A stretch of DNA of 63,999 nt, filler included, from Catajapyx aquilonaris (lineage: Eukaryota), in assembly GCA_000934665.2 (NCBI GenBank). It is 3 parts of 3 records of this genome, joined end to end, with 100 filler letters (N's around TTAATTAATTAA, not from the genome) between each part and the next. Parts side by side here need not be neighbours in the genome. Positions count along the whole stretch, not along the records: positions 1 to 21,613 come from JYFJ02006012.1; 2 more parts are not named here. One strand, written 5' to 3'. Below are positions 1-31,186 of this stretch, piece after piece. Both the position numbers and the translations under genes were made by a program. The stretch's first letter is position 1. The number at the start of each line of letters is the position of its first letter. A model generated the notes under the pieces. That model searched no databases. It worked only from the letters and a program-made list of their open reading frames with translations, and was not told the origin of the DNA.

Positions 1-2
1 CC

Positions 3-344
3 CAGATCGAGAAAGAGTGCCTCGGGTTGGTTTGGGGTAGTGAAAGGTTCGCAGAATATATCGTCGGAAGCTCATTCCTCCTAGAAACCGATCATAAGCC
101 CCTAGTTCCTCTCCTGACATCCAAACAACTCTCCTCACTCACTCCACATCTTCAAAGACTCCGTATCCGCCTTTTCCGATATGATTACGAAATTAATCAC
201 TCTCCAGGAAAAGATCTTGTCGAAACGGATGCCCTAAGCCGAGCACCTGTGCCTTGGGCACCACAGGCTGAAGAGTTAGAAGATGAAGTGGAAGCATTTG
301 TCCACATGACGCAAATTGAGTTACCAGCATCACCAGCGAGACTA
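3..344 (+). pseudogene. Ty3/gypsy pol fragment (RNase H domain), truncated
   Basis: Reads QIEKECLGLVWGSERFAEYIVGSSFLLETDHKPLVPLL...LQRLRIRLFRYDYEINHSPGKDLVETDALSRAP, carrying the E.E.L, TDHKPL and DALSR motifs of gypsy RNase H. Homology stops at the CACT terminus at 345. Confidence 0.93.
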
Positions 345-600
345 CACTCTAAATCACATGTGTACTTTATTAGTACACATAAATTGTGTATGTCAGGAAA
401 TACACACCTGTGTGGATCCTGAGAACACAATATTGTGTATGCAATGGTAACCGTACACATTATGTGTAGAGCTCAGTGCATGGATGAGGTACACAATACA
501 TGTGTAGCTAATTTCATACACATATATGCGTACAAATGTTAAAGTGTACACAATGACGAAGGTATATAACACTTCTCAGTACACATATTGTGTACGACTG
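345..600. mobile_element. CACTA/EnSpm (CMC) transposon terminus with palindromic subterminal repeats
   Basis: TA|CACTCTAAA begins exactly where gypsy homology ends. It is followed by repeated TACACA...TGTGTA inverted units (gtacacataaattgtgta, gtacacattatgtgta, gtacacatattgtgtac) and leads into an EnSpm-type accessory gene. Confidence 0.7.
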
Positions 601-1123
601 GTGCTGCCATCTTTATATGACCTCACTTTAACATATACACTTATTGCCGTGTTCTTCTTTATCATTGTTGTTTCTTCGCGCGATTAAGAGTACATTTATT
701 AAAAATATACAAATTAGCAATGCTGATGCAACAGACACTGACACTGTCATGTCGGGTATTCCCCGCCCAGCCCACGGACGAATCGAAGCGACGTGCCTGT
801 TGAAGGGAAGAAAGAAGAACAAAAAGCAAGACACCAGGAGATCAGACTGCAATCCAGAGGACCACAAGCATGCTGGCAGCAAGGCAGGAATAGTGGGTGA
901 GTGTATAGTGCGCGTCTTATACACTCAGTTGATGGCGATTATGTTTTAAAGTAGGCTACACATCATACCTAACCCACAAGAGAACACAGAACACAGTGAT
1001 GTTACAAGCCTGTTAGCATTTTTACTCTATTTACTGTCAATTTTGCCTATATGGTCATGCAATTTCCTATATGTGGCTGATGCAATAATAAACAATGAAG
1101 GTCAGGTCAAGGTGGCAATTTCC

Positions 1124-1181
<58 letters not shown>
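1124..1181. repeat. (AAT)n microsatellite
   Basis: Perfect AAT run. Confidence 0.98.
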
Positions 1182-1502
1182 TGTAAGAGTCAACATGAGT
1201 AGGGTTAGGGAATATTTTTAGATTACATGTTTTTTTCATCTTCAAACGACATATAGCAGCAATATCCACATACCAGCACAACCCACCAAAAGGGGGGGGG
1301 GGTCACCGACCTAAATACCACCTATTAGCCACCTGTAAATACCCCTCTATATTATAAGGTATATGGTATCTGGATATGGCTCATAATTATGTATTTACAC
1401 CAGCCTTTTAAGCACTTTTAGACACTTCGTTCTTGTAATGCATGACACTTAATGAAATCGAATTCCTTTTGGCACTAAAAATGTGTCAAAAAGGAGCTTA
1501 AA

Positions 1503-1672
1503 TCTGCCGTCAGATGTAAGAAGACCGTAACTCGAAAACCACTAAGGGCGAAAGTCGCATTCACGCCCTGCACTAATCCCCTATGAGCCAGGGTGGATTA
1601 GTGCACGGCACGCATGCGACTTTCGCCCTTACTGGTTTTTTGAGTTACGGTCTTCTTACAACTGACGGCAGA
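1503..1672. mobile_element. 170-bp fold-back MITE
   Basis: TCTGCCGTCAGATGTAAGAAGACCGTAACTC... pairs with ...GAGTTACGGTCTTCTTACAACTGACGGCAGA over nearly its whole length; flanked by AA on both sides. Confidence 0.85.
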
Positions 1673-1763
1673 AATGACATGTAGAAAATATAATTTACCT
1701 GGTGCTTTCACTTGATCACAACAGTAGGCTATACTGAAATCATTGTTTCATTTTGTCACTCAG

Positions 1764-4700
1764 ACAACAAGGTAGATCGAGCAGCCTTTCTGCTCCTGGA
1801 TGCGGAGACAGCAAAAGAACTGATCCCTCTTATAGGCGATCGTGTGAAACTTCTTAGGAAAGTAAAACAACTGAGACAGCAGGCAAGGCGTGGCATCAAG
1901 ATTTGTAATTAGTAACATGTAGCAGCAGCAGCTTAGGTTGGTGCACTGCTACTAATTGTTGTTGTTGTTGTTGTAATAATTATTCACTGTTTTTTGACAT
2001 ACCAGTAAGTCACCTATTTACTCACTGTACCTGGCATATGAATTGTTCCAATTGATTTATTGTGACATTGTCTGTAGCAGTTCCTGCTCGCTTCAGTAGG
2101 AAATTTAACTGTTCAGTAATGACAAACATTGTCAGAAATATTTCTAGTTTGAACATACAGTATTAGTTTGCTTTTGTTGCCACGTTCTGCTTTCTTGCTT
2201 TGTTCTTATATATTTTTTTAGGATTCCCTGGAGCAAGATAGAGTAAACCCAGACCCAAATGGCCAACCACACACATCCACTTCAAATGCGTCCACTTCAG
2301 CAGACACAACCAGATAATGAATCATTCTCCAGAAACAGCAGCAGTTGCTACGGTATGGTTTGTAGCGACTTCCGTTAACCTTTTGACGACCGAGTTTTTG
2401 AACCATTGCATTACCCGAGGGCCCGAGTTTTTTTTCCACTTCTCCGGAAATTTGATGAAGAGTGATATTATTGAATAATGATCCGCGGACTGCCCGGATT
2501 ACCCGGATTGCCTATAGTCACCTGATCAAAATGACCCTGTGACCCATTTTTGAGGGGGCAGAGGGGGTCAGAGGTCAAATTCCGGGGGGTAATCCCGGTA
2601 GTCCGAGGGTAATCTGGGGGTAGTATGAGAGAAGTCCGGGGGTAATCCGAGTGTAGTCCGGGTAGTCCAGCGGTAATCCAATTTTACCTCTCATCATATG
2701 ATGTCCGTAGTCGTCAAAAGGTTAATCAGAAAAGTATGCATGAAGGACTTGAACTGCATTGTTTATTGAAGGAGACTTGGTCTATGTGACCACCAAGACA
2801 GTTAGCTCTGCAGTTACGTCAAATTTCAAATTAGGTCAAAATCGTGTCACACTGCCAATTCCTAGCTTCTGCCCATTTGTCGAGTCAATGGGAGGGTGAG
2901 AAGTTGTGTCCATGCAAACGTAAGTGGCTGTCTGAACAGACCAGCATTATTGTATGTAATAGTGTAGACTTAATTGTTGCAGTATGATGTGAAGCAAATC
3001 CTGGGTACCACTCCAAGAGGGAAAGACATGTGTACCTTTTATGAAGGTAGTCCAGATGAAACAGATGATGCATCAGCGTCAAGATCACACAGGATGATGA
3101 TGATAAAAATGCTCGGAAAATATATCCTTGCTCATGCAATGAAGTCTGTATGTACACATGTAGTGATTTATTATATTTATAGAAACTTTCATATGTCAGT
3201 TATGTTCATGTTGTACAAGTGTTCTGTAAACACATATCTACTCGTAGTTTGGCTTTATATTTTCTTGCATTGCAACGGTGTTTTTTGTGTCAAAGGATTA
3301 ATGAGCTATCAGTGGAGGAAAAGATTGGGATGGCTAAAAGCATAATAGAGGCCTTCCCAAGGCTGCGAAATGAGCATACCGAAAAAGGATATGTAAGTAC
3401 GGCGTATTGTGGCACGAATTATCAATTTTTAATTAATAAATTCTTCATTTTCATGTTCTGGCGACCATTCTTATAGGAGGTGTTCTATGATCCAATTGGA
3501 CACAGTGGCCATTTAGAAGTATTTCTACGAACAAAACGTAGTCGTGACCCACTGATTCCCACAAGACCATACAATAGGAAAAAATGTAAAGTGACAGGTG
3601 TAAGCAATCCTGATAATGACATGGAAGAAGTTAGACAAGCAGAACTTTTCTGCCGCACCAACACCCCTAATACCGAAAACAGGTCAGTGCTGCGTCAGAA
3701 TATGACTTACACACGCCCATCGCGTCGCCACTGGATCATCAGTGACAGCCCTGCAGCTGCAGATATCTTAAAGAGATACCCTCGATTTGTGGACTTCAAT
3801 GAATTGGTATGTAGATTGGCAACTGTAGGAAAGAAGCATTCAGATTCTATTCCCATTACTGTCTTTCATAGATCAATGATGAATTTGAAAGCATCGTAGG
3901 AGACTTTGTGCCTCCCTCTGAGGCTTTACAAGTAATTCAGGAAAGCCTCCTGAAGCGTGGAAAGTTGCTTCACGATAACCTGAAAGCACTGCTCTATATA
4001 ATGAAGGTATCTATGCAGTCCTAATGTGAAAGTACCACTATATCTCCTATCATGAGACATCTTTTTGAAATGCATGTTACGAATAAAAATAATTTCTGCA
4101 GCAGAAACTACCAGGAAATGTGTGATGCTTCTGCCATATCTTCTTCGTGGTCCAATGAAAAGGAGAATCGATCCGGGGAAAGCTCTCAAGCAAATGTACT
4201 TGGAAATTGAGGTAATATGTTCATTGATATTGCTTAATGAAGTTGTGATTTCAATATTATAAGTTGGAGCTAAGTAAACTTGTAAGGGATGTTGCTCCGT
4301 CAGAGCATATCAACTTACTCATTACTATATATCTGAATGATTAGAAATTCTTGACCTGGATACAAAAATACAGGATAACAAAATTAATTTTTATAGTACT
4401 TATTGCCACTGGCTGGTATGAAATATGTGCTCATGTACCCGACAATTTTTTTGTTGTCACTGATTATTTGGATTATTTCTAGGATAGCCTGTCTTTAGAA
4501 CAAGCTGTGGAGAGGGCCCAAGATGCTGCTGGAATGCTTCAGCCAGGTCTGATATGCCTCCAGGGGCAGTACTTTGTTGTGGTTGATAAACAAGCCATTT
4601 TAATAGATACTGCAAGCACACTATTCGATGGACTGTGCTTCCTCTTGAAGTGTTTTTACACATTGAATTTGAAGTACCCATCTTCACTGTCCCATGTCTA

Positions 4701-4812
4701 CGCATTCATTGAAACTCTCATGGAGCTGAAAGGTGACAGTGTGACTAAGGCACCAGCAGCGGTACTGGATTTTCTGCAGGAACTAAAAGGGAGTGCTAAG
4801 GGTAAGGAGTGA
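1764..4812 (+). pseudogene. Multi-exon SAM-domain (SAMD3-like) accessory gene of an EnSpm/CMC transposon, probably decayed
   Basis: Exon-like segments bounded by splice signals at about 1764-1882, 2222-2352, 2983-3143, 3296-3392, 3477-3806, 3872-4006, 4102-4211 and 4483-4812. SAM-like DNKVDRAAFLLLDAETAKELIPLIGDRVKLL; central IIEAFPRL...GYEVFYD...SGHL and TRPSRRHWI...DILKRYPRF; C-terminal LLKCFYTLNLKYPSSLSHVYAFIE, typical of animal EnSpm ORF2. Two junctions are out of phase, suggesting frameshifts. Confidence 0.8.
2379..2721. mobile_element. piggyBac-type MITE within an intron
   Basis: TTAA|CCTTTTGACGAC ... GTCGTCAAAAGG|TTAA: 12-bp perfect TIR with TTAA TSDs at 2375-2378 and 2722-2725; internal CCGGG/GGGGTAATCC repeats. 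Confidence 0.92.
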
Positions 4813-5281
4813 CAACATCATGATTTTTTGGGGGAGAAATCCTGAATGTCCAAAGGAACTCTGCTAAGCCAATGCCTTAGATACAATTCCAAGAAAGGGG
4901 GGTACCAAGTCTGGGAAAATTGTAATCAATAGGTAAAGTTTAGATTAAAGGGTTGGAGGAGGGACGGTTCCTCCTATAGGTCCATGCTTTCTATCCCTTT
5001 TACTATCCTCTTTCACCATTTTTACCTTTTACCATTTTTTCTATCCTCTTTTACCATCACAGATCCATGATCCATGAGACTTACACCACATCAGCTCATC
5101 GCCTGATGATTGATGTACTGATACATGACACGATGATCGGACCTCCTTGGTGTAGGAAGTAGGGCTGGAGGAGGACGATTATTACAGATTGATTCAGTTG
5201 ATTGTTGACACTGACACTAACAGAGTAACACTGTCAAACTCAGAATAGTAACTCACTAACTAATTGGCGGCGAAAGCTGCC

Positions 5282-6250
5282 ATGGCGGCCCAAGAAGGTG
5301 GTGCAGCAGCACCTGAAAATGATACTGATCCCACGCTGGATAGCCCAGCAGAATCAATGGATGGCCCATCTAGACCATCCAAGAGAGATCGATCACCATC
5401 TGGGAGCGATACGGAGAACGGAGACCCTCCCTTCCAACAGATCGCCACTAAAAAGGTATGCCATATGGCTGCCAAACAGGCTCTCCCCAAAACACTAGAG
5501 CAAGGCGTGGCCCAGGAACGCCACAAGGGGGTAAGAACGGTAACGTTCAAGCCCAGAAACAAGGAGGACGGCTACGGGAGAATAAACCCGCACCTCCTTG
5601 CCAGATCGATTTGTCAATACGGCGTTAAGCCCCCTTCAGCTGTGGGTACTGAAGTCGGGCGACCTCCGGGTCAAAGTGGCCACGGAGGAAGAAGCGGAAA
5701 AACTCTCCCCAGTAAGGGAGGTTAGCGGGATCCCGTGCAGTGCAACCGCCAGCTCCCAGACGATGCGCTTCCGGGGCCTAATCAAGGTTCAGGGAGCGAG
5801 CACGGACAAAGCCATTTTAGAGGCCCTGGCAGAGACGGGCGCGGTGAAAGCAAAACGCTTCAGCCGTAATGTCGCCGGGACACAGATCCCGAGCAGCACG
5901 GTCCTGGTCACCTTCAAAGGCGCTCTGCCGGAGAAGGTGACTGTAGGGATCAACGACCGAAAGGTTACCCCCCTTTGTGGCCCCCCAATCCAGTGCTGGA
6001 ACTGCCAGGGGTTTCACCATGTGGCAAAAAATTGCAGCAACATGCGGCGCTGCAGACACTGTGGGGAGAACCACATGGCCAGCAGATGCAAGGCTGAAAC
6101 TCGCAAATGCGCGAACTGCGGCGGTGAGCATATGTCCTCCACAAGGGCTGCCCACGCCACCTAGTAGCCAAGGAAGCGAGACGCCTGAGAGAGGAGGAAG
6201 GGGCCAGTAATAAAGAGGCCAAAAGACAGGCCAAGGCCACATACAGGTAG
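5282..6250 (+). pseudogene. gag-like ORF1 of an I/Jockey/R1-group LINE with three CCHC zinc knuckles, frameshifted
   Basis: PIQCWNCQGFHHVAKNC, CRHCGENHMASRC and CANCGGEHMSSTR(x)C, preceded by LKSGDLRVKV and TVLVTFKGALPEKV. Split across ORFs 5264-5725 and 5598-6164; no APE-RT ORF2 follows. Confidence 0.85.
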
Positions 6251-6905
6251 GTCCTTGCCATGTGGTGTCCCCAGCTGGGAAAATTATTTCAGCTTGGGAA
6301 AATTATTATTGATCAACTGCGTTTTACTATAGGTGTAGGACGTTCCACCAAAACCCTGCACTCTTCACCCAAGATTCATCTGATTGTCTGGTCCATCAGT
6401 TTCACCATTACCTGTTACTGATAGAGCCTACTTCACTTCATCACCTCAGCAATTACCAGTACACAGTCTTAATGACATCACAGTTAAACTAGACTCACAT
6501 AGTAAGATCAATATTTTTATAAGTTATGAGGAGAGTCACATCCAGCCAGAATTTATTTTACTTTCTGCTTTATTATCTTGTTAAAATGGCTGCAGATACC
6601 AAATGACACCACCTACATAAACCACATATATTGGCAGAAAGCCTGGGGTTGCATATGTGGTTGTGCCTAAGTGAATTTATAAATCTTTTATTGATCCAGC
6701 CTATTTTAAAGATCATTGTCATGCTTCAGTGTCTGGTTCTGTCATTTTTCACCTTCCTTTTCTTTCTCTGTAATAAAACTTTTATGGATCTGAGTTCTTT
6801 GCAATGCCATTACAAATGTTGCTTCTTGCCTTTCCTTCCACTTCGTAGTTTTTCCAACACTTTTGCCACAATCTCCTGCTTATGCATGGGTGAGGGTATT
6901 GTTCC

Positions 6906-7600
6906 ATGTACATTTCTTACTTTCCCTTTGAAAACTTGCCCCTGAAGAGAAAAAACCGGGGATGGGGTCCACTCACCCCAAACCCCCTCAAAAGTGTGGC
7001 GCAGTCCATGCCCGGAAATCCCGGAAGCGTGGCAAGCCAGGTCATGACCCTGTTCAAAAGGGAGCTGTGGTGGCGTACGGTCCTGGACGATGAGGCCCGG
7101 AGCCTCATGACTGGGGACCCGTTGCACACGCTGCATCTGCACCCGGACCATTTTGTCCCGAACATAGACCTCCTTCCCAATGAAGATTGGAATGAGCTGG
7201 ACACTTTTGTGCGGGTGGCTAGCGTTGAGATGACTACTATCCTTTACAAGCAAAGACGGGCGTTGCTTGCGCGCACAATGAAGCGGAGACGGGAGCTTCT
7301 CTCCAGCCTCCCGAGGAAGGAGCAGGCCCGGGTCCGAGCGGAGATGGATCGGTACCGCCGGGATACGGCGGACCGGTATGTACACAACCAAAGGGGGCAC
7401 GACCCCGACTCCCAGGCCAAGTGTCGCTTCCCGAAGCGCCATATCCTTCTGCAAATGGAAGCTCTCGATTCCAAGAAGGGGTGGAAGGGGGGGCAGACCC
7501 GCCCCAAGGGCCCACCGCGACCACCCCATCCAGGACTCCCGACGAGGTGGTGATCCTGGACACCTCCACTGAAGAGGAGAACGCTTTTGGCACACCAGGT
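6906..7600 (+). CDS. Unidentified GC-rich coding remnant, probably of TE origin
   Basis: 215-aa ORF with a helical basic core (NEDWNELDTFVRVASVEMTTILYKQRRALLARTMKRRRELLSSL), apparently continuing by frameshift into PSRTPDEVVILDTSTEEE. No family recognised with certainty. Confidence 0.45.
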
Positions 7601-8089
7601 GGGCAGGGAAAAAGATGTGAAGTGATACCTGTGTTTTGATTTGAATGACCGGCGCATTACCAGAGAAGGAAAAGTAACGTTTTGTCAAACTGTCATTTAC
7701 CGCATTTGTTTGATGCACAATCCAGTGATAAGCATCTTTGTTTGTTTTTCTTGCCAAGAACGATCTGCCACATTTGTGAAGTGACGCCGTCTGTGGACTA
7801 TTGACGGCCGTCCAGTGTTTTGTTTGGGGCTAATCGTTTATCTTATTATTTGCAAGCCGAGTTGAAGTAGTCCAGTTTGAGAGGACTTGTGCGTAAGTTT
7901 AATTGGTTTCTCCGACTTCAACTTTCCTTGTTGTACATAGTGTACGTATATAACTCCCAGTGTTCTATTTCAAATTTTGATCATACCTGCGCAGTGACAT
8001 AGGTGGCGTGTGCAAAAGTCGACTTTTGGCCATCTAGAAAACGGCTGGGAATTTTGGGATGTTGAGGATTTTTGGCCAAGGTATATCGG

Positions 8090-11000
8090 GGGCAAGGAAT
8101 CCAACGGATGCCTACCCCACTGACAGGAGAGGCTGAGTTGAACACTGCCCTGCGGCCACCTGAGCTCCAGGAGGGTAAGCTGACCATCTCGTTCCCCATG
8201 CCCCTGGAGGTTCGGTGTCGTTGAGGGATGTAATCATGTCTACAAAGGGGACGTGTGGACGTATGTGAAGCAGTCCCTGACCCAACACCTGCGGAGGGGT
8301 CATGAACTGGAGCCCATCGAGGAGGTACTGTGCAGGTGGTGTGGGATGGAATTGAGACTGCGGCCATCCTACCACATCGAGCAATGTCCTGAGAAGCCTG
8401 AACAGATAGCACCCGGGGATATTACCTTGGGGAAATTCACTTGCGCAGAATGTGGAGAAATGCATCACACTAAGATAGGCATCCGGAACCATCTTCGGTG
8501 GCATGTGGAGGAGCAGTTGCGTGAAAAGAACGGAGCTCCTGAGAGAAGATGCGCCCGCCGGAAGCCAGACATGAGAAGGCGTTCCCCACTTGTTTTAGTC
8601 ATTTTTCTCATTTAATAGCGATAAGTCCTCGCATTTATCTTTTACTGGGTGCAGGCGTCCCCGGTCGACCTGGCGGAGGTGGAGGTGCTGGGGCCGGGCC
8701 CCTGTTGTAGTGGCCGGGACGGACGGGGTCGCCTGTGTTAGTTTCTGGGATTACCTGTCACGAATCGCGTGGATTCGTTAGTCTTTCTTGAATAAGTTTT
8801 AGTCTGGGGGCCTGCCCCCGGGTTTCGCGGTTTCTTTGGCGACTCGCCCCCCGGGGGCCGTCCCCTTTCCGGCCTTGTTACTTGCGTCATTGACGCTTTT
8901 GGTGGGACTGCCTGTTCTGTCCGTCATGTGTCGTCAACTTCTCGTTGAATGTAGACGTCTGTTAACGTTGTTTGTACGCCTAGTGCGTGATAGTACTTTT
9001 CTTTTCCGACGTTTTGTTTTGTGGTCGCCGAAGACCCCTCAGGTTCTCGGCTTGTGGGTTGTGGACCACCAATAGCATCCCGCTTAACGGGCTTCTCTTT
9101 TTCAGGGACATATTTGAATTCTCCCCTTCAGGGATAGACCGTTGCATTAATAATAGGGTTTTTTCTTTCTTCAGCATTTAGCACCATACGGCAGACTTAA
9201 GCCATTTGGCTCTTCAAGCATAAGGCATAGTGTCCTGTAGCGAGGATTAGGGCCTTGGATCGGCCTAGAGGTTGAAAGGCTACGTCGGGCCAACCTCTAT
9301 AAATATTTTCAACTGATTCCTCCACCCCCGCAGTCTGGTTGCGAAGTGGAGGGTGAGGTGGGAGTTATTAGCCCCCATCCAAGCGAAAGAAGCATAAATG
9401 ACTAGGCGTGGCCATTGGCCAGCAGGCGACGCCGGACCGGGTGGGAGAAGGAGGCGAGCTTTTAACCGATTTTAGTCCTGTCCCCCACCCCACACCCCCC
9501 CTCCCTGAGGCTGGTCCTCATTTTAACCTATGTGGTCCGTTACCCCAATTCCCACAGGCCGGTCCTGCTTTTATTCCCCCCTCCCCTTTCCTCCCCCCAG
9601 CATTCGACCTGGTAAGTCCCGTTTTTGCCAGGGTAGGATCGGTGCTGGTTCCTTCCTTTTTACAGCCATCAGTCGTTCCGATTTTAGCTGATTACTCGCT
9701 CCCTCCTATCCCCCCGGCCGACGTCATGGCCAGTCCGGTGGAATATGATGCCCCTTCACCGGCTGGCTTCGCCTTGTTTAATACCCAGACCAATGATACT
9801 GGCCACATCATCAACGATGACCAGCAGGACGATGCAGATGCAGAGATGGGTGGCCAGGAGAATGACCACATCGGACCGGATGACGAAGGGGACGAGCTGG
9901 GTGTTCCCAGTCATGATGAAATCCCAGATGGTCCACCATCTGAGGGTGACCCTGCGCCGGACGAGGGGAGAGAGCCACCACCATGGGAGGAGTGGTTGTC
10001 TCGACTGATGGACGCACTCCTATCCATATACATCTCCCCGCCCTGGCCAGAATCTATAACATGGAGCAGTCGGAGCAAGCGTGGGCCAAATTTGAGGAGC
10101 TCCTGGAGAGAGTGACTGGCACGGCCAGGGAGACCGGCCATATTCCTGAACCCACCGGGAACTCCGGACGAACGAAGAAGCCAATGGATGTGGAAGACTG
10201 CAGGGCCATCCAGAGCCTCTATAGACGGAACCGGCGGAGGGCGGTGCGGCTCATTCTGGAGGGCGAGGGGCAGAAGTGCCAAATTCCGAAGGCACAACTC
10301 GAAGCCTTTTTTGAAGCAGCATATGAAGCCCGAACCAGGGACCCAGTCTTTTATTCCCAAAGAGGTACTCGACCCCCACTCGAGATGACAGATTTCAACC
10401 CTGGGGAAGTGGTTGGAAAGTTGGGGGGAGCAGAAAGTACGGCTCCAGGTGAAGATATGCTGACCTACCAGCACTGGAGGCAGCTTGATCCAGAGGGAGT
10501 GCTGCTTACAGCCATATTTAACATCTGCCTGAGATACCGCCGCATTCCAGACAGCTGGAGGAGGTCAACCACGGTCCTTAGGACGACCTCGGTGAGAAGG
10601 GATTCCTCCCCCATGACGGAGTGATCGAGCATAACTTTGTCTTGCAAAGACGAATGGACGAGGCGCGGCGACACAGGCAGGACCTGTGCGTCGCGTGGCT
10701 GGATTTTTCGACGGCGTATACGGCAGTACCGCATGGAGCCCTGGTGGCGGCGCTGGACGCGGTGGGAGCTGGAGACGTCTTCTGTGAATTGATTGAGGAC
10801 TTCTGCCGGAACGGAACCACGCGGATCATGACCGCTGGCGGTCTTTCGTCCCCTGTCCCGACTTGTAATGGAATTAGACAGGGAGATCCACTTTCATGCT
10901 TGCTGTTCAACGTCGCTATTGATCAGCTGTTGTGGCAGGTCCAGCCCGATGGTAGAACGGGGACGCACAAGGTCCTAGCTTACGCTGATGACCTCACGCT

Positions 11001-13480: not shown

Positions 13481-14113
13481 ATGTGTATAGACAACCTCGA
13501 ACCCATGACATTAGCATTCGCAGTGTAGCAAGGTGTCATAGTTTTGGTGTGATATATTTTTCTGGTTTCACTTTATGACGGAGATGGCCGGGGTTACAAG
13601 TCAACCTGTTTTCAGATAACTGCTGCGCCCAGAACAAAAACAACGCTATTGTGCAGTTTTTGTACACGTGTGTGAAGGTAGGCAGGTTCGATCGCGTAAG
13701 GCATATAGGGACAGAAACGACGCAATGCCAAAGCTTTCTGACATTCTGGAACCTTCCGAACCTCCAGAGGCTGTACCTGCGGTGCCTAAGCGGCGGAAAC
13801 TTCATTTATCTCCATTTGTGTCTCCACCAACCAGCGGCTCCAGTGAAAGTGTCGGGACAGGTTGGGAACTCGTTGCCCAACCTTAGTCCTAAGAATGAGC
13901 AAGTTCTAAGTGTTCATAGTGATTCGGAGGATTCCGAGGGTCAGTGTTTATAGATAGCATAAGATTATATTCGCATGTAAAGAGCACTGTCCTGATATAT
14001 TGATCCATTTCAGTTGCATATCAGTTTATGTACAGCGTGCTATGCTATATGGGCAGTGGAAGCTATGCTTCTTTTTCCATTATTGATCCCATAATGCTTT
14101 CCCCCCCCCCCCN

Positions 14114-14153
14114 CAGCCCTGAAGAGGGGCTTTACCCCGAAACCGGTCGGCTG
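14114..14153 (+). ncRNA. Minimal type I hammerhead ribozyme (Penelope/retrozyme type)
   Basis: CAGCC-CUGAAGA-GGGG cuuua CCCC-GAAA-CCGG-UC^GGCUG: stem I CAGCC/GGCUG, core CUGANGA, stem II GGGG/CCCC, GAAA, palindromic ACCGGU stem III and a GUC cleavage triplet ending at 14148. Confidence 0.88.
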
Positions 14154-15139
14154 GTATCATATTAATCCAACTTGTGTCCACTTTCCCAGAAATTATTGTG
14201 GATCAATAACTGGAAGCTGCCTGGATTGTGGCCTCAGGGCTGTATTGTAATTACAGCTTGTGTTAAATATAGTTATGGTTGACTGGAAAACACGTAGCAT
14301 TCTTTCCACGTCAGGACCTAGGTCCTTCTTGCTTATTAGGGCAGTTACAACAGTTCAGTTGTCGTCACGCGGATGGGGACAACTCCAGGTTCGTACCCAG
14401 AACCAGTTGGTGGACAAGCCAAGCAACAGTGGGAGATAAGGTAATCATAGTAGTCATGTCGCATGCATGCCAGGCAGTTTCAATGGAGTGGTCTAGTAAC
14501 ATGACCTTTGCTTAAAGGCGTTTCCTCGGCTGTATGTTCTCTTGCCTAATCACCAAACCTAACCTAACCAACCCTTTTTACCATAATTTTGCATAATCTT
14601 TTTCATAATTGTGTCATTTTTGTTTACTTTATTTCCCAATAGCGGGTTACCTTTCCTTGCAGACATTTGGTCTTTTCTGATTGTTGGAATTTGTCTTTGT
14701 TTTCAGTCCCAGAGGGGCATCTTGTACTGTACTTGTGTAAGTCGCCTCTTACGAGCCCACAATGGGCGAAACAGCTGTCAGGCGCAGCATAATGAGAAAT
14801 ATAATATAATCTGCTGAATTAGTTGCCGTGCCCTGGGTTATTTCAACTAAGCTAACCTAATAACCTTTAAAACCTTTTAAATGTAAACCTACGTTTGTGA
14901 AGAACTTTAATGAAAAGTTCAATGCATTTTGTGTTGCAACATGTTCAAATGTTGTTGTTACCTTGGCCACTGTTATCATACAAGTTTAACAAAGTCATAT
15001 ATGTTATACCACAGAGCATGTACTTTGCTCAACATACCCAGCAATACATTCAGATGTGATACTATTTCATTGTACTTGCTCAAGACAAGTATAGCGATAG
15101 TCTATTATTTTCTCATTAATTTCTTGTGTGGATGTTTTC

Positions 15140-16020
15140 ATGAGACTGCATCTCCTACAACTTCTAGTGCAGAAGACAATCAGGTCTCTGGGTAGCTGAA
15201 GCGCAAGAGACACACATTTACTCTGCCTGACTTCACAACAGAATGATGTTCAGCCCATGTTGCAAGGAAGAGATATTACAGAAAAGCATCAGAAATCAAT
15301 GAGCTCTGATCTTAAGAACGAGATCATTAATTACTTGGAGTAGGTACGCTGTAGTACTGTAGTTACAGTTCAAGAAATTAATTCACTTCTTATTTCAGTG
15401 AAGGCAACCTCATTACTAGCGGATCAACAGCACAAATCAGATGGTTATATGACGACCTGGGTTTTGCACTGACTTGCACCCTGACTTGCTATGGGACAAG
15501 CTCAGTTCCAGTAAGAGGAAGTGTACAACAGTGAAAAATGCTTGTGTGATTATTATTATTGTTGTTGTTGTTGTTGTTGTTGTTACAACATGCCATGATA
15601 TTACTTTCTGTACATACATACATATATATATACATACATAGCACGGTACCTTATATCATTGACATCCGTCTTTGCAGACGATCTTTATACAGCGCTTATC
15701 CTGGATGCGCAACAAACAAAGAAACCGAAAGGTCAAGAATGCAGGTGATGACAGAAATAACATTCCAGATGACGCATTAAATCGCAATGTCTTACCCATT
15801 GTGGAGCCTGCAGACAACCTAACCAGCTGTGAAGATGCAACAGCTGAACTGAATGTAAGTTAAACACTGATGAATGGTTGTACATATTCTTGGTTAATTT
15901 TCTTGTATATTGCATCTGTTATTGCAGATGATGGCAGAGACAATGGAAGAAGGTGGCACATGCGATGAGAACCGATTGAAAATTTTGCTTCAGATAACCG
16001 CATGCACCATCTGCAATACA
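15140..16020 (+). pseudogene. Decayed second SAMD3-like/EnSpm accessory gene fragments
   Basis: Remnant peptides KRKRHTFTLPDF..DVQPML...MSSDLKNEIINYL and IQRLSWMRNKQRNRK...CEDATAELN|GTAAGT...TTGCAG|MMAET with splice signals and internal stops. Confidence 0.4.
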
Positions 16021-17229
16021 GTCAGTAATGTGATCAGACATGGACTGCCTCTTTTTCCTTAACTTGTAGGTGACAGGGCGTGCTTCGTCATTTTGTTTTT
16101 TGTGAACTAACCTAACCACACCGTACCGTTGCCCAGTAGAGCATGCCCTTCAATGACCCTGGATTGTGTGAATGACCTTCTTGCAAGTACATTTTTCCTA
16201 TAGTTGAGTTTCCAATGGAATTTTGTCACTTTTTCCACACTCTGTTGTGGTCAGCCATCTATGATGCAGTAATCAGTTGGGATTTACAGTTTGAAGCGGC
16301 CATTTTTTTATACAGTCAGTTATAATATACCATTTGAATTTTGGGAGCAAGCAATTTTAAGAGTAAATTTCTGCCTTTCTGATGATGTTTGAGCCCTATA
16401 ATTTTTCAGGCCTATTGTTACTTTGCGTTTGTGCGCTGCCAGGTCGCATCCCAGGTTTAGCTTGTAACCTAACCTAACCTAACCAACCACACCTGCGTGT
16501 GCAGGAACACACAAAATGTAAACGTGTGAAAAGTGACTTACCTGTGAAATAACATGTAAACTGGAAACGTGTGGAAAATGACTTATCTATGCAGTGACAT
16601 GTAACAGAATAGAAACAGTGCTAGAAGTGTCGCGTTGTTTGTCTCCTGTGGGAGTAACTAACTGCAACCTAACCTATCACACAACGAGAGTTCCATACTC
16701 CGCTTGTTAGCACTGGACCACTCAGCAGCCATGATGGAGGACAGACCTAAGCATTTCAAGGAAATAATCCTGCAGAATGAGGAAGCGGTGGCAGCGCACA
16801 TGGACCATCACCCAGGCCAATACCTAGTTCGACAATTGGCCAAGAAACAACCCGTAATCTTCAACGAGGGGTACTAATTTCAGGTGAACTCAGATGACAA
16901 GACAGATTTACCAGGCATTGAGACACCAGGGTTATTTTCAAACAGAGTGGCAACCAAAGGGGGACCCCATTAACGCGACCCTGGCAGCATTTAAAAGGCA
17001 AATATATTTGGCCAATAAGATAGATGACCACGAACGATCCATCGCAGCTGTGACCTAGCGAGACCTATACCATTTACGTACGCGTTATAGATCAGAATTT
17101 CACAAGCTTATGCGACTTAATCTCGCCCGTTGTGCAATATCCTTTTAAACACATGACACTTAGTCATCTGGATATTGCGCAGTTGATCAGTATGAAATCG
17201 ATGACAAAGGACAATTTTTCCTTATGCTG

Positions 17230-17624
17230 CAGAGTGCAGTTGCGAAAGAGGCGTTGCGCCACCCTTCGCACCTGCACTTATTGCACCATAATGTCGCAAG
17301 TTTTAACTATAATTCTGCGCGTTAAAGGCACCATTGGCCACTATAAAAAGGCTCGCCGTTTCCCATCTCCTCAGTCTCTCTCCAGGACGGACACCCGCGT
17401 ATCATCAGTATGTAAGTACCAGTTATTATCATTTTATATTTTAGTAACGGTATAGTGTAATATTATTAAACACTTATTATAATACGTAAGTGATGTATAG
17501 TGAAGTGACAAAATAAATGTCTTACTCTTCTGATATGTGTGTATTTCTTACTCTCTGGGGCTACTTATCGGAAAACTTTAACATCAGCTAGATACCTGGG
17601 CTAATCACATTTAAGTTGATGACA
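17230..17624 (+). mobile_element. 3' part of a 5' LTR (start not defined)
   Basis: Contains CCATTGG...TATAAAAA and AATAAA, ends in ...GTTGATGACA directly before a PBS, and is homologous to 32037-32265. Confidence 0.8.
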
Positions 17625-17642
17625 TGGTGCCGTGACCAGGAT
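17625..17642 (+). promoter_or_regulatory. Primer-binding site complementary to tRNA-His
   Basis: TGGTGCCGTGACCAGGAT is the reverse complement of ATCCTGGTCACGGCA-CCA, the 3' end of insect tRNA-His(GTG), and sits immediately after the LTR-terminal CA. Confidence 0.9.
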
Positions 17643-17742
17643 TTAATTGTGATTAACTTTAATGGTGATTAACGCATAAAACGTTTTCCGAGACCAGCCC
17701 TAGGCGGGAGAAGTTGTATACGCATAGTGTTAGTGTTAAATA

Positions 17743-18940
17743 TTGCTAGTTCGACACTGTGGTAATTTTATGTCAGACAGTGAGGGGGAGAGCGCATTAA
17801 AAACCACTGGAAGTATATTAGGACAGTATAAGGAGAAGGTGATAGTTTTGACATCCTTGTTAGAACGTGAGTGTGAATTATCCTCTCAGCTAATAGCAAC
17901 CATGACGGGCACGGACACAAAAGTTAGTGCAAGTACTAGTACCGCTGTTCAGGAGCAGGTAGTCCGGTTTAATAGTGGACTGTTAATGACAATCCCGTAT
18001 TTTGAGGGCCGTGCAGAGGGGGATGAGGCAGATAAAAGTGATGATGCGAAAGGGGTCATCATATTGTTGGACAACTGGAGGGGCAGGAAGAGGGTGCAGG
18101 CCGAAGAGGGCCAGACAGAGGGCGCTGTGGGATTGCGCCATACCGTCAGGAGGCTGGAAGAGGACACAGAGAGATGTGTCAAGGGATGCTGCAGTGGGCC
18201 AGGGGCGTCGCAGATCCTGGAGCCAGCGACGAGTGGTCTGGATGCCGGTAAGAATACCTGGAGGCCGAGGCAGAAAGGTCCAGAGGTAGAAGATACCAAG
18301 AGTTTGCTGTTGGCGAGTAATGAGAACGACGAAGATGACACTTTTAAAGGGACCATCCCGGGGAGGGATGATTTGATGGACCAGGGTCAGGTGAAGGCAG
18401 AGGAGAAGCAGACTGAGGGCAGTTTGCGCCACACCGACAGGGAGCTGGGGGAAATGCAGAGATCCAGGGGGTCTGCAGGTCCTGGGGTCAGCGACTGGCA
18501 GTCTGAAGGCAGGCGAGTACATCTGGAGGCCGAAGCAGAAGAGTTCTAAGAGACGTTCTCATGGTGGAGACAACCATATGAAGAGGAAGGCGAAAGTCCG
18601 GTGCCGAGAGGAGTGTGCCGAGTCGCTGCACCATCCAGTCGTGGGGCGATAAGATGCTGGGGAGAAACTACTGGAAAAGCACTGTGTCCACCAGGCTGAT
18701 CAGAAGAGTCTGGAGGAAGAGCAGAAGGGCCCAGAGACTGGTTGTGAAACAGATGCTGCTCTTGAGAAGACTGGTGGTCGTGCAGCAGCAACAGCAACTA
18801 TGGGAGACAAACTGCGACTGGCTCAAGATATAAACTACAGCTGGAGGAACTGGAGGAAAAGAAGAAAAGAAAAAAAAAATGGCTGGAAGTGGAGAGTTGT
18901 TGGAACGAGATAGTTCTCGTTCCGTTTAAGGGGGGAAGAT
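17743..18940 (+). mobile_element. Internally deleted LTR-retrotransposon body: gag-like ORF remnant and polypurine tract
   Basis: 268-aa ORF (..MTIPYFEG..) follows the PBS and contains a diverged internal repeat (QTEG..LRHT...GPG.S twice). PPT AAGGGGGGAAGAT at 18928-18940 is followed by TGT. No pol is present. Confidence 0.65.
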
Positions 18941-19175
18941 TGTAGTGTCCAGGCAACTGGCTGGTGATGGTTGCTTGGTCACTGAGTTATTTATGTTGTT
19001 GAGAGAACCAGCGTTGTTGAGGTTTCCTATCAGTTCTTGTTATAACGTCCTCCTGGACGGATGTGCTGTACCTGTTGTCTGAATAGAGTCCACAATGGTG
19101 GTTTTTGCCCTTTCCCCGGTGTGTTTCCTTGGATGGTTTTGTGGTGTCTCTCATGCCTCATCGTGAGGCACTACA
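18941..19175 (+). mobile_element. Candidate 3' LTR
   Basis: Starts TGTAGTG right after the PPT; CACTACA at 19169-19175 gives a 7-bp terminal inverted repeat. Confidence 0.5.
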
Positions 19176-19329
19176 ATATCAAGTTATTCCTCTCCATGTC
19201 ACATGTTTTAGCCAGGGCAATGCGAAGCTGCAATAAGTTATAGCCATAAATGAAATAGGTGCCATTCAAGAAATCTAAACCAAACGTCATCTTAACATGT
19301 GTTATTGAGATAACAATTATTTTCTCTTC

Positions 19330-20556
19330 TTAAGGAGAGTCACTAAACCTTGTGGAAGGAGGCAGAACAGAAGAAGAGTATCCGAAACACTAAACAGAGT
19401 TTTGCAAGATATCCAGGAAGATGCCTGTGTGTCAAGACAACAGTTGAATGAAAAGGCAAATAACAGCAGCACTAATGACTGTCACAGCATGAACGAAGGA
19501 GGTGCTGAAGCCAGGGAAGATGCTCTGATGAGTGAAGAAGTCATCAGCAATGATGTTGAGATGCAAGAGTGTGAACAGGTGGGTGATGATGAGTGTGTGG
19601 AAAATGTTCTAATCTCATCCAGCAGTGAGTGACAGTTCTCAGTGCATCACAAAGGGCGAGCCCCCTTTATCAGTAGAACTGCACCAGTGGGCCATTGAAC
19701 ATCACATTACTGCCACAGGTGTAACACGGCACTCCTGCACAGTTTGGTTAAATTCTGGGATTCAGATCATCTGCCATTAGATATGCCAGTTTTCAAGAAC
19801 AGCTGCAAGAGGCACATCACCGTGGGACTTCCATTTTGGAGGATTTGAATGTAAAGATGGTCTCCCAGTTTCCTTTGGAATACATGCATCTGGTCTGTCT
19901 GGGAGTTATGCGCAAGTTAGTTGATATGTTCCTGGCTTCAAAGTCATGAAGTGGAGTGTCAGTGGCCTCAGGCAATGCCGTGAGCGAATTTCTGGAGGGA
20001 TTTCATGCATGGACGCCGTCCGAGTTTGGGAGAAAACCAAGAGCCTTGAATGAGTGGCATAAATGGAAGGCCACAGAGTTTCGTCAGCTCTAGATATATA
20101 CCGGCCCACTTGTTTTTAAGAAGAATATGAAGAAGAGCCATTTCCGTCACTGCCCTGCATGTCGCAATGAGGATTCTGGCAAGCCCAACACTCTGCATGG
20201 AATTGAATGATTACGCTTCTGATCTGTTGGTGTATTTTGTGGAACATTTTGCTGACATGTATGGAAAGCATCACATTTCATACAACGTTCATGGTCTACT
20301 TCATGTGGCACATGATGTCAAGAATTATGGTCCCCTGGACTCATATTCTGCTTTCCCATTCGAAAACCATTTGCAAGTGATCAAGAGCATGCCCAGGAAA
20401 GCCCACAAGCCATTGCAGCAACTGTACAACAGAATATGTGAATACCAACAGGCCAACACATCATCTTACAGCTTTGATGATGAAGAAACAATAATGCAAT
20501 CATGTGACACAGTGAAATTGATCAAATCTCATCAAACATCGTCCCATCTCAAATAG
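19330..20556 (+). pseudogene. EnSpm/CMC transposase fragment (mainly C-terminal), degenerate
   Basis: ELHQWAIEH, DHLPLD, WKATEFRQ..YTGP and LHVAMRILAS...FVEHFADMYGKHHISYNVHGLLHVAHDVKNYGPLDSYSAFPFENHL...KPLQQLYNRICE. Confidence 0.88.
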
Positions 20557-20573
20557 CAAATTCCGAGCATGTC

Positions 20574-21515
20574 ATGAGGTGTCCAGTTCTGATTGGCCAA
20601 CAAGAGTTAACCTCACCACATGTATTTTTAAAGCACATTAAAAGCCATATTGCCAATGGCTGTGAGATTCAGTGCCCATTTCAGTATTGCTCGAAAAAAT
20701 TCAAAATATTATCATCATTTACGTCTCACATGTCACGAACTCATAGTGGATCCTCTCACCTGTCAAGTGATTTGTATGTAGTTCCTGCTAGTTCCTCCAG
20801 CAATGTGCCAGTATGCATACCACCATGTGAGGATGGTAGTGAAACCTTAATTACAGATGGTAGCAATAACAATTCAGATGTGGTGAGTGAATCCCAACTT
20901 TGCCAGAAACTGGCAGCACTATATTTACAGCTGCAGCATGTTCCTGCTTCGACGATTCAGACCATCATTGAAGAGGTTCACATTGCACAAAATTTGAACC
21001 AGGCACATATCTGTCGTGAACTTGCACAGTCTTTAAGTAAGCATAATGTAGCTGAGGAGATCTTAAATGTTTTTGCAACAGTTGGTCGCAGTGATATGTT
21101 GGCACAGATACATGCATCCAAGTCAGGTGATTTAAGCAGCATATTTAAGCGCAGAAAATACTACAAGATAAAATTCAACTTTGTGCCACCTTGTGCCATG
21201 CTATTTGGAATTGACTCGTGCAACAAGGTTCAGTTTTATCAATACATTCCGATCAAAGACACTCTTGCTGGTATGTTTAGGGATGAGTTTGTGAGAAAGC
21301 ACTTCATCCAGTCTGTGCAAAATACAGGGATGGCATCCTCCGTGATTTCACAGATGGTGCTGCGTTCAAAGAGAACACTTACTTTCAGACTAACCGGGAT
21401 TCCTTGCGCATCATGTTATATCAAGATGCCTTTGAAATAGTGAATCCCCTAGGATCTGCAAAATCCAAGCACGAAATTCTTGGCGTGTACTACACTCTTG
21501 GGAATTTGCCCCGGT
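20574..21515 (+). pseudogene. Second EnSpm/CMC transposase, N-terminal part with C2H2 fingers
   Basis: FLKHIKSH..CPFQYCSKKFKILSSFTSHMSRTH and YQYIPIKDTL; after a frameshift, LRIMLYQDAFEIVNPLGSAKSKHEILGVYYTLGNLP. Confidence 0.88.
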
Positions 21516-21613
21516 TGCATATTAACAAACTGTACATGGCTAGAGAGACAGGCGGCCTGGGCCCCGCCCTCCCTCGCTCCGATTGGTCCTGCGTCTGGCG
21601 CGCTTTTAAAAAC

Positions 21614-26200: not shown

Positions 26201-26886
26201 CAGGGTGTTCGAAAAAGGTGTTCCCAGTAAAGAACTAATGCAGTTCCGGAAGTATTCCATATATTTTATTCAAATTTCCCAGGAAGGTGGCACATATGAT
26301 CAAGTTTTTGTACAAAAAGTCACATCTCCACATGTCCACCCTGGCGTCGAAGACACAGCTTAAACCGTTCTTCAGCCGCTAGCCAGGAGTTAGACAGCAT
26401 TTCAGGAGTGATGGTGGAACTCACCTCCACAATCTTCTGCTTCAGCTCAGCTACACTCCGGCACTTTGAAGCATAGACTCTGTCCTTGGTGTAGCCCCAT
26501 GCAAAAAAGTCTGGAGGAGTCGGGTCCGGAGAATTTCGCGGCCACGGAATGGGTCCATCTCTGCCGCACCAGTTGTCGTTGAATGACAAATTAAGAAACT
26601 CACGTACCGGGATGGCCCAATGCGGTGGCGCTCCATCTTGCTGCAGGATGACATGCTGCAGGACCTGGAACGTAGCTGAGTTAAAGCAGAAGATTGTGGA
26701 GGTGAGTTCCACCAACACTCCTGAAATGCTGTCTAACACCTGGCTAGCGCGCCAGGGTGGAAGTGTGACTTTTTGTACAAAAACTTGGTCGTATGTGCCA
26801 CCTTCCCGGCAAATTTGAATAAAATATATGGAACCTCTCCGGAACTGCATTGGTTCTTTACTGGGAACAAATTTTCGAACACCTTG
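26201..26886 (-). mobile_element. DD41D (rosa-like) Tc1/mariner derivative made of two 3' ends
   Basis: CAGGGTGTTCGAAAA...TTTTCGAACACCTTG|TA. Minus strand encodes QQDGAPPHW...WCGRDGPIPWPRNSPDPTPPDFFAWG, with 41 residues between the second and third D. The C-terminal VAELKQKIVEVSST..PEMLSN.WLA also appears on the + strand. Confidence 0.92.
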
Positions 26887-26980
26887 TATAATTTCATTAC
26901 CGGTATAATATAATATTACTGTAACTTTTAAAGATTTTAACTTTTAAAAACTTTAAAAGATGGTAATGCTAATTAATATA

Positions 26981-30200: not shown

Positions 30201-30299
30201 ATATACAGCAGGTCATTGATGACTACGCCTATACTGTAACAATAACATTGCTTTTTGCACACTTAAGTGATAAGTAATGCGGAAAGTATTGTCGCCCAG

Positions 30300-31077: not shown

Positions 31078-31186
31078 CAGCGAGGTCTATACGATTCACG
31101 TGCACGTCGTATAACAGTCACTTGGGACACCTGCACGAAGCTTGTGCGACTCAGTCCCACCTGTTACATGAGTATAAATTATTATA

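Follow-up and report, generated by a model that had tools for sequence, protein, structure and literature searches.

The window analysed here is a stretch of 63,999 nt from the genome of Catajapyx aquilonaris (GCA_000934665.2), in which three contigs are joined by N spacers. Contig 1 (JYFJ02006012.1) occupies positions 1–21613 and is bounded by an N spacer; both of its ends are cut by the assembly, and repeats lie at both ends. Judged by domains, homology and motifs, these 21.6 kb hold what appear to be decayed, truncated fragments of at least seven mobile-element families, covering LTR elements, LINEs, DDE transposons and a ribozyme-bearing retroelement (Table 1).

Mobile-element remnants in contig 1

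Table 1. Features of contig 1 (window coordinates)
Feature	Position	Strand	Evidence and remarks
Ty3/gypsy-type RT-RNase H remnant	3–419	+	Pfam RT_RNaseH, E 1.8e-9, profile 50–105 of 105
Decayed remnant of a gene resembling P0072 (502-aa protein)	3240–4809	+	Two blocks, in the order of the relative
ORF1-like piece	5649–6140	+	Three CCHC-type zinc knuckles (by eye); type of a LINE ORF1 or of a nucleocapsid
Longest ORF of contig 1, 339 aa	6813–7829	-	Overlaps 219-aa plus-strand ORF (6894–7550)
Non-LTR retrotransposon (LINE) body	8184–12110	+	Frameshifted; RT at 10582–11160
DUF7869-type DDE transposase remnant A	12113–13226	+	Pfam DUF7869, E 1e-5 (12309–13226), profile 58–160 of 192
DUF7869-type transposase remnant B	13579–13950	+	Pfam DUF7869, E 0.0015, profile 63–94
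Putative type-I hammerhead ribozyme motif	14114–14153	+	Pattern match, sequence, structure descriptor
LTR, directly followed by PBS	17236–17643	+	TG...CA ends, TATA box, second copy in contig 2
Acidic ORF, 269 aa	17740–18546	+	Downstream of PBS; 87-bp internal direct repeat
DUF4218-like piece	20131–20553	+	Pfam DUF4218, E 0.0061, weak, below curated cut-off
Tnp2/EnSpm-like transposase, N-terminal third	20574–21511	+	C2H2 finger, one frameshift

The gypsy-type RNase H remnant, already assigned to the plus strand by the first-pass annotation and confirmed there by Pfam, is truncated at the 5′ end because the contig begins there, and is not followed by an integrase. The second LTR-type feature is a TG...CA LTR with the primer-binding site TGGTGCCGTGACCAGGATT directly behind it; a TGG-starting, tRNA-type site in this position is what the 5′ end of an LTR retrotransposon carries. 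The LTR is similar to a stretch of contig 2 (32032–32265) on the same strand, and since the match to this second copy stops exactly at 17624, the boundary between the LTR and the PBS, which starts with TGGTGCC..., is fixed at 17624/17625. The copy in contig 2 has the same ...GATGACA end and no PBS. The reverse complement of the PBS ends in ...CCA, as does the 3′ end of a tRNA, presumably one resembling tRNA-His. No second LTR was found in contig 1 by similarity comparison. The LTR and PBS of the block originally described as LTR/PBS/gag/PPT are thus borne out, but its gag and PPT are not: the 269-aa acidic ORF taken for gag has no Pfam match, E ≤ 10 included, and no credible match in the protein atlas (best score 0.89, unrelated bacterial clusters), and the PPT found no support.

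In the P0072-like remnant, residues 165–312 of P0072 map to 3240–3800 (tblastn, 1.2e-23), a block with one in-frame stop, and residues 409–488 map to 4492–4737 (1e-8). The ORF at 4483–4809 has 73 relatives at E ≤ 1e-3 (best 1.8e-12), and a weak match to DUF7498 (E 0.006) covers 3477–3896. This region had been called an EnSpm SAM gene; it does contain a gene remnant on the plus strand, but neither a SAM domain nor any other Pfam family is found in P0072 and seven other relatives.

The ORF1-like piece has a single relative, P0010 (E 2.1e-8), of which residues 101–269 align with its full length (tblastn, E 1.7e-14) with zero stops; its match to Pfam zf-CCHC is weak (E 0.082). What had been labelled a LINE ORF1 stands as a zinc-knuckle, ORF1-like piece, and a LINE ORF1 and a nucleocapsid both fit it. 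All ORFs of the LINE body (8184–8612, 9950–10621, 10582–11160 and 10979–11902) are on the plus strand, including the reverse transcriptase, which matches RVT_1 (E 1.2e-16, profile 54–188 of 205) as the earlier assignment had predicted. A zinc-finger region is N-terminal in this body, and a Cys-rich motif, which by eye reads as possibly of restriction-like-endonuclease type, closes the C-terminal part.

The plus-strand transposase expected at a site labelled Sola1-like is present in the form of two DUF7869 matches. Remnant A adjoins the end of the LINE, whereas remnant B is a second, diverged copy whose match begins again in the same profile region. Since the two show no DNA similarity at E < 1e-5, they do not represent a recent duplication. 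At the far end of the contig, where two EnSpm transposases had been annotated, the Tnp2/EnSpm-like N-terminus is placed on the plus strand by homology, with nine relatives (E 7e-25 to 3.5e-15). It corresponds to residues ∼50–390 of relatives of ∼870 aa, and 18 tblastn HSPs, all on the plus strand, have E values of 1e-35 to 1e-46; Transposase_21 is matched by two of five scanned relatives, weakly (E 0.005) and below the curated cut-off. The adjacent DUF4218-like piece, which we take to be of the type found as a C-terminal region in Tnp2/EnSpm transposases, has the same strand but is weak. An inverted-repeat search returned one palindromic MITE-like element and otherwise microsatellite matches only; terminal inverted repeats belonging to a large element were not found.

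The hammerhead motif is composed of a 5-bp helix I, CUGAAGA, a 4-bp helix II, GAAA, a 2-bp helix III capped by a palindromic loop, and a GUC site; just 5′ of the motif, the sequence has an N. With its type-I metazoan core and short palindromic helix III, it is a putative ribozyme. The hammerhead previously reported on this strand is supported by a structure descriptor, which was written after the site had been seen and matches once in the window and in 0 of 2000 shuffles, but Rfam reports none, either across the whole window at the gathering score or in contig 1 at E ≤ 5. The MFE fold of 14114–14162 differs from the hammerhead fold, and a stricter pattern (CTGATGA...GAAAC) matches contig 3 only, at chance level. 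As far as the cited sections describe them, the hammerheads of Penelope-like elements and retrozymes (PMC4209133, PMC7229834) share with this motif the core, the 4-bp helix II and the 2-bp helix III with palindromic loop, an architecture that in metazoan type-I hammerheads is said to act as a dimer (PMC4209133). Unlike those hammerheads (PMC4209133, same sections), the motif in contig 1 is a single copy with no tandem partner, no Penelope RT nearby and no Rfam match.

The longest ORF of the contig, on the minus strand, has no relative at E ≤ 1e-3 among 2326 candidates and no Pfam match below E 0.08; the plus-strand ORF that it overlaps reaches at best 0.85 in the protein atlas, without a credible match. 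The other long minus-strand ORFs lie opposite plus-strand coding pieces. When 24 long ORFs (14 plus, 10 minus) were compared with Pfam at E ≤ 10, weak zinc-finger-type matches appeared on the plus strand only, and the minus strand gave nothing usable. Six-frame Pfam scans of 13954–17229 and 420–3240, with stops read as X, returned zero matches on either strand.

The fragments are interrupted by one in-frame stop or by frameshifts. Most are present in ∼1–3 copies at ≥85% likeness, with read depths of 35–95 compared with ∼30 for single-copy sequence; contig 1 is mostly low copy rather than a repeated composite unit. The fusion of fragments that the first-pass annotation had proposed is verified at two junctions, at ∼12112 and ∼20560, which are crossed by exactly matching contigs from an independent assembly of public reads. 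The first, between the LINE and remnant A, is spanned by 12003–12964, and the second, between the DUF4218-like and Tnp2/EnSpm-like pieces, by 19470–20906. The runs listed for 3001–13000 are four DNA runs of one study and a fifth run with almost none of the sequence; no RNA run is among them. What is directly observed comprises the fragments with their family-level identity, the strand that they share, their decay and these two junctions.

Strand distribution and base composition

All 10 orientable features of contig 1, whether oriented by Pfam, homology, motif or the LTR–PBS order, are on the plus strand and none is on the minus strand. The 200 stop-to-stop ORFs of 50 aa or longer (96 plus, 104 minus) were all compared with Pfam, and matches at E ≤ 0.01 were obtained for 6 of 96 plus-strand ORFs versus 0 of 104 minus-strand ORFs. 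Homology adds three further plus-strand features (the Tnp2/EnSpm-like N-terminus, the P0072-like remnant and the ORF1-like zinc-knuckle piece), and the tblastn maps are on the plus strand only. LTR, LINE and DNA-transposon classes are all represented, as had been claimed, by RT_RNaseH and LTR–PBS, by RVT_1, and by the DUF7869 and Tnp2-like pieces, respectively. By class, two of the ten oriented features belong to LTR elements and four to five are DNA-transposon remnants. At least four repeats (1503–1672, ∼2511–2700, 8003–8108 and ∼20957–21613) have no assignable orientation.

The plus strand is purine-rich in 32 of 43 500-bp windows of contig 1, compared with 20 of 43 in contig 2 and 21 of 41 in contig 3. 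This asymmetry points to the polarity seen in the fragments without relying on homology. A/T homopolymer tails, poly(A) hexamers and ratchet-type splice motifs yielded no strand signal that could be used.

The first-pass annotation had counted at least nine unrelated fragments on one strand and had put the chance probability for nine at ∼0.004. The common strand holds, but 'unrelated' does not: DUF7869 and the EnSpm type each occur twice, the EnSpm-type pieces side by side, and the two LINE-type pieces are separated by only 2 kb. Because several fragments are kin or neighbours, the number of independent events is ∼7–10, and the two-sided probability (2 × 0.5^n, computed post hoc) becomes 0.016–0.002.

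Contigs 2 and 3 contain no transposon coding remnant, as judged by Pfam on 146 of 152 ORFs with a minimum length of 57 aa (six 57-aa ORFs omitted) and on 116 of 116 ORFs, respectively. Their sole matches are weak, to TMIE in contig 2 (E 0.0028, a non-transposon family) and to PRC2_EED_ins in contig 3 (E 0.00083, minus strand). Since neither contig has a transposon domain, they provide no local control for the strand bias.

Possible causes of the common strand

We tentatively favour, at somewhat less than even confidence, a reading in which contig 1 forms part of a strand-polarised graveyard of transposons whose orientation was selected by a transcription unit running through it, most probably a piRNA cluster transcribed from the minus strand. 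A long transcription unit through the locus would select the orientation of the fragments. If the precursor were read from the minus strand, every fragment would be antisense and could give rise to transposon-targeting piRNAs, and insertions facing the other way would disappear, through the termination signals that they introduce or because their sense piRNAs would be of no use. Transcription of contig 1, its direction, its small-RNA output and a selective cause are what we infer from this layout, which would fit a one-strand piRNA cluster. In general, such a cluster is defined by uniquely mapping small RNAs of 23–31 nt with a 5′-U bias that densely cover one genomic strand, and by a long precursor with a defined promoter. 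Poly(A) hexamers speak against this reading: with 14 on the plus strand and 21 on the minus strand, they are not depleted on either strand, the proposed precursor strand included, and their count does not favour read-through on the minus strand.

Selection by transcription would also operate if contig 1 lay inside a very long host intron or a non-coding or UTR transcription unit, from which sense insertions are purged without any role for small RNAs. An antisense bias of intronic transposons is established in mammals (cited sections of PMC3517506, PMC1794541 and PMC3088655), and the lower CpG observed/expected ratio of contig 1 (0.60, with ten 2-kb windows at 0.43–0.71, versus 0.76 and 0.81 in contigs 2 and 3) would be in keeping with a body that is methylated and transcribed. 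We nevertheless consider an intron rather unlikely: the ORF and six-frame Pfam scans revealed no host exon or non-transposon domain across the 21.6 kb, the ratchet-type splice motif AGGTRAGT occurs 0 times on the plus strand and once on the minus strand, and the undepleted poly(A) hexamers count against a purged unit of this kind as well. Moreover, those sections of the mammalian work show a bias rather than 10 of 10. There, co-orientation is attributed to selection against sense termination and splice signals, as proposed here for contig 1, but the bias is a statistical tendency, most pronounced for LTR elements and L1, whereas contig 1 has no visible host gene and its DNA-transposon remnants are polarised too.

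That ∼7 independent insertions into heterochromatic transposon debris share one strand by luck, with some help from selection by the reader, is unlikely in our view. At seven events, the probability is 0.016, and with 685 windows of this genome read, a few such contigs would be expected by chance; the kin pairs (DUF7869 and EnSpm-type) may reflect local duplication instead of separate insertions, and several repeats carry no orientation. Against this, the purine asymmetry extends beyond the annotated pieces, and the lack of DNA similarity between the DUF7869 pieces excludes a recent duplication for that pair. If chance or an intron does account for the common strand, contig 1 would be ordinary repeat debris. 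A structural process in place of selection, either capture and carriage within a large composite element or a series of template switches during repair or reverse transcription, appears very improbable. It would agree with the direct adjoining of pieces at both junctions and with EnSpm-associated pieces near both ends of the contig (∼3.2–4.8 and 20.1–21.5 kb), but the first of these bears the EnSpm label only in the first-pass annotation, and the eight relatives scanned lack any Pfam family. At the other end, the C-terminal-type piece comes before the N-terminal one, an order that is wrong for one element; in addition, the inverted-repeat search found no ends of a large element, and the low copy number does not agree with a repeated composite unit.

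Comparison with known small-RNA loci and implications

In published descriptions, one-strand piRNA clusters are arrays of antisense transposons that persist through selection and through the poly(A) signals carried by sense insertions (PMC10643416, in the sections cited throughout this comparison). Drosophila flamenco and flam-like clusters (van Lopik et al. 2023, PMC10643416) have in common with contig 1 that they are gene-poor and consist of truncated, decayed fragments, drawn from many families, that all point one way, and the logic that we propose for contig 1 is the same, with an antisense precursor and sense insertions disfavoured through their poly(A) signals. The flamenco-like identity suggested at the outset is accordingly matched in layout, that is, in decayed fragments of several classes on one strand, but not in Gypsy or LTR enrichment. 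LTR enrichment is the defining trait of flam-like clusters, in which Gypsy elements alone carry the strand bias (PMC10643416), whereas contig 1 is not Gypsy-dominated and lacks this enrichment. They were sought in 100-kb sliding windows, and the de novo proTRAC clusters exceed 35 kb, compared with 21.6 kb visible in contig 1 (PMC10643416). A position away from centromere and telomere is a further trait of such loci. For flam, Piwi-bound small RNAs, a promoter and expression in the soma are established (PMC10643416).

Outside Drosophila, the siRNA 'master loci' of mites, also arthropods, are compact transposon catalogues that feed small-RNA surveillance (Mondal et al. 2018, PMC6004056; PMC5805368, as far as the cited sections go). 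These loci yield 21-nt Dicer products from both strands equally (PMC6004056, same sections).

A possible but doubtful extension of the favoured minus-strand piRNA cluster is that many dispersed one-strand loci archive all transposon classes in antisense, from DNA transposons and LINEs to ribozyme-bearing retroelements and beyond Gypsy-type retroviruses, with contig 1 as one piece of this archive. If this were true, the flamenco principle would be a general, class-blind genome defence outside Drosophila. Should small RNAs confirm the cluster, one-strand piRNA loci outside Drosophila would police DNA transposons and LINEs in addition to retroviral elements, and the approach taken here would offer a sequence-only route to such loci in genomes for which there are no RNA data.

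Polarity of the transposon remnants in contig 1

The window consists of contig 1 (1–21613), contig 2 (21714–43315) and contig 3 (43416–63999), joined by N spacers containing TTAATTAATTAA, and the co-orientation described here refers to contig 1 alone. Every stop-to-stop ORF of ≥50 aa in this contig, 200 in total (96 plus, 104 minus), was searched against Pfam; six of the 96 plus-strand ORFs matched a family at E ≤ 0.01, compared with none of the 104 minus-strand ORFs. The two largest unannotated stretches, 13954–17229 and 420–3240, gave no Pfam match on either strand when translated in six frames with stops as X.

Domain matches, repeats and other features of the window
Feature	Position	Strand	Evidence or detail
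RT_RNaseH	3–419	+	Pfam E 1.8e-9
Palindromic MITE-like element	1503–1672	no orientation	inverted-repeat search
High-copy repeats	near 2511–2700	no orientation	
DUF7498, weak	3477–3896	+	Pfam E 0.006
High-copy repeat	8003–8108	no orientation	read-contig depth
RVT_1	10582–11160	+	Pfam E 1.2e-16
DUF7869 (first piece)	12309–13226	+	Pfam E 1e-5
DUF7869 (second piece)	13579–13950	+	Pfam E 0.0015
DUF4218, weak	20131–20553	+	Pfam E 0.006
High-copy repeat	~20957–21613	no orientation	read-contig depth
Inverted-repeat pair	26194–26893		arms 261 bp, 78%
Inverted-repeat pair	30299–31078		arms 316 bp, 81%
tRNA-Ser (GCT) gene or tRNA-derived repeat	42150–42221	+	contig 2, Rfam 36.9 bits
Inverted-repeat pair	56633–57431		arms 208 bp at 87% + 60 bp at 98%

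Homology searches placed further coding remnants. ORF 20508–21437 has nine relatives of ~870 aa each (E 7e-25 to 3.5e-15), with Transposase_21 (Tnp2) weakly matched in two of the five scanned; residues ~50–390 of all nine align by tblastn to 20574–21511 (+), with one frameshift, and nowhere else in the window. ORF 4483–4809 has 73 relatives at E ≤ 1e-3, including the 502-aa database protein P0072, which aligns as two ordered plus-strand blocks, 3240–3800 (with one in-frame stop) and 4492–4737. The label SAM, given to this gene in the first-pass annotation, finds no confirmation, since P0072 and seven further relatives carry no Pfam family. The zinc-knuckle ORF has a single relative, database protein P0010, placed at 5649–6140 (+). 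With 74 fetched proteins, all 71 tblastn matches fall on the plus strand; they cluster at only three places and are therefore not 71 independent observations.

All ten orientable features of contig 1 lie on the plus strand, as the first-pass annotation had claimed. Its count of at least nine unrelated fragments (p about 0.004 for nine) has to be revised, because the two DUF7869 pieces are kin (yet share no DNA similarity), the DUF4218-like piece adjoins the Tnp2-like piece and the two LINE-type pieces are 2 kb apart. This leaves 7 to 10 independent events, with a two-sided, post hoc p of 0.016 to 0.002. A homology-free measure agrees with this polarity: 32 of 43 500-bp windows are purine-rich on the plus strand in contig 1, versus 20/43 in contig 2 and 21/41 in contig 3. 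Pfam scans of ORFs in contigs 2 and 3 revealed no transposon domain, and these contigs are therefore of no use as an orientation control.

The longest ORF of contig 1 is on the minus strand (6813–7829, 339 aa). Since none of 2326 candidates proved to be a relative and no Pfam family matched, and the remaining long minus-strand ORFs lie opposite plus-strand pieces (the LINE, DUF7869 transposase, ORF1-like piece or ORF 17740–18546), we found no transposon remnant among the long minus-strand ORFs. The 339-aa frame is unexpectedly long at ~48% G+C; it overlaps a 219-aa plus-strand ORF, and three further frames are open across 7240–7640.

At least four repeats in contig 1 gave no strand assignment. 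The near-perfect palindrome (arms 1503–1579 and 1595–1672, 89–94% complementary, 15-nt loop) lies partly inside a very deep read-contig bin (~2000 versus ~30 for single copy) and resembles a foldback or MITE-like element of high copy number. Immediately upstream of the LINE zinc-finger region lies the ~105-bp block at 8003–8108; this short repeat is very abundant, seen in 22–27 contigs per run with a summed contig depth of ~28,000 at 8061 versus ~30 for single copy.

The LTR and the hammerhead motif

The contig 1 LTR is backed by a second copy on the same strand (+) in contig 2, at 32032–32265. The copies are 75–89% identical and their similarity stops exactly at 17624, directly 3' of which contig 1 carries TGGTGCCGTGACCAGGATT. 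This is a primer-binding site, and its complement has a tRNA-like 3' end. The contig 2 copy ends at the same ...GATGACA and, as no primer-binding site follows, is a solo or 3' LTR. An extra AT-rich stretch of ~165–190 bp (17380–17544) is present in the contig 1 copy and absent from the other. Downstream, ORF 17740–18546 had been called gag, an identity that could not be demonstrated (no Pfam match), and we found no evidence for the proposed PPT.

A hammerhead had also been annotated on the plus strand. Rfam reports none, but 14114–14153 (+) reads CAGCC-CUGAAGA-GGGG-CUUUA-CCCC-GAAAC-CG-GUC-GGCUG, in which the core is complete, helix I has 5 bp, helix II 4 bp and helix III 2 bp with a palindromic loop. 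A structure descriptor built post hoc on these elements matches a single site in the window, this one, and nothing in 2000 block shuffles. The motif has the architecture reported for dimer-acting metazoan type-I hammerheads (PMC4209133). A single N at 14113, preceded by a C-run, immediately adjoins the motif on its 5' side, and helix I may therefore exceed the counted 5 bp.

Assembly support, copy number and other repeats

Contigs independently built from public reads (three runs of one sample, probably that of the assembly itself) were compared over 1614–21613. Exact read-derived pieces bridge the LINE/DUF7869 junction near 12112 (12003–12964) and the DUF4218-like/Tnp2-like junction near 20560 (19470–20906); others cover 6911–8035, 14304–15541, 1644–2435 and 2535–3085. 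Single-copy depth is ~30, and most coding remnants lie in bins of 35–95 and are therefore few-copy at ≥85% likeness. Two pieces depart from this: the ORF1-like one, with bins near 155, and the Tnp2-like one, whose last part extends into the 20957–21613 bin (~700–1000). Depth reaches ~350 in the LTR bin, ~2000–3000 in the 1614–2947 bins and ~3300 in the bin containing 8003–8108 (~28,000 for the element itself).

The tRNA-Ser is the sole Rfam match at gathering score within the window. The three long inverted-repeat pairs of contigs 2 and 3 have short spacers and represent foldback or MITE-like elements or, possibly, hairpin-RNA loci. A ~350-bp repeat family in contig 2 has three copies (34033–34392, 36745–37084 and 38155–38369; 73–78% identity) in both orientations; non-coding repeats thus do occur in mixed orientation there.

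Origin of the shared strand

Contig 1 holds decayed, truncated fragments of many families that abut and share one orientation. A single strand is not predicted by random heterochromatic accumulation, but it is by selection relative to a transcription unit. Taking contig 1 alone, a strand shared by chance is rather unlikely but conceivable. A structural origin, with all fragments inside one composite element, is improbable: the order of the EnSpm-type pieces does not suit this, the inverted-repeat search found no terminal repeats and copy number is low over most of the contig.

The same polarity would arise in a long intron or another transcription unit, through a mechanism documented for introns of mammals (PMC3517506, PMC1794541, PMC3088655). 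Pfam ORF scans found no exon in contig 1 and no ratchet-type motif was seen; we consider this origin less likely than a small-RNA source locus. The lower CpG observed/expected ratio of contig 1 (0.60, with ten 2-kb windows at 0.43–0.71, versus 0.76 in contig 2 and 0.81 in contig 3; GpC ~1 in all three) is consistent with methylation, transcription or silencing of the domain and does not discriminate between the readings; the transposon-rich contig may have been methylated in the germ line.

We favour, with less than even confidence, the reading of contig 1 as a candidate one-strand small-RNA source locus that would be transcribed from the minus strand. Its layout is that of flamenco-type clusters as described in PMC10643416, where selection is proposed to favour antisense insertions and to disfavour sense poly(A) signals. 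Two results count against this reading: contig 1 is not Gypsy-dominated, which on LTR/Gypsy content sets it outside the flamenco-like clusters, and poly(A) hexamers (14 plus, 21 minus) show no depletion on the strand proposed for the precursor. In some arthropods, as the mite siRNA master loci of PMC6004056 show, catalogues of this sort supply Dicer pathways from both strands, and the small-RNA class of the candidate locus is therefore not to be presumed. Taken as a working model, contig 1 resembles flamenco-like clusters and adds another candidate to a known type of locus.
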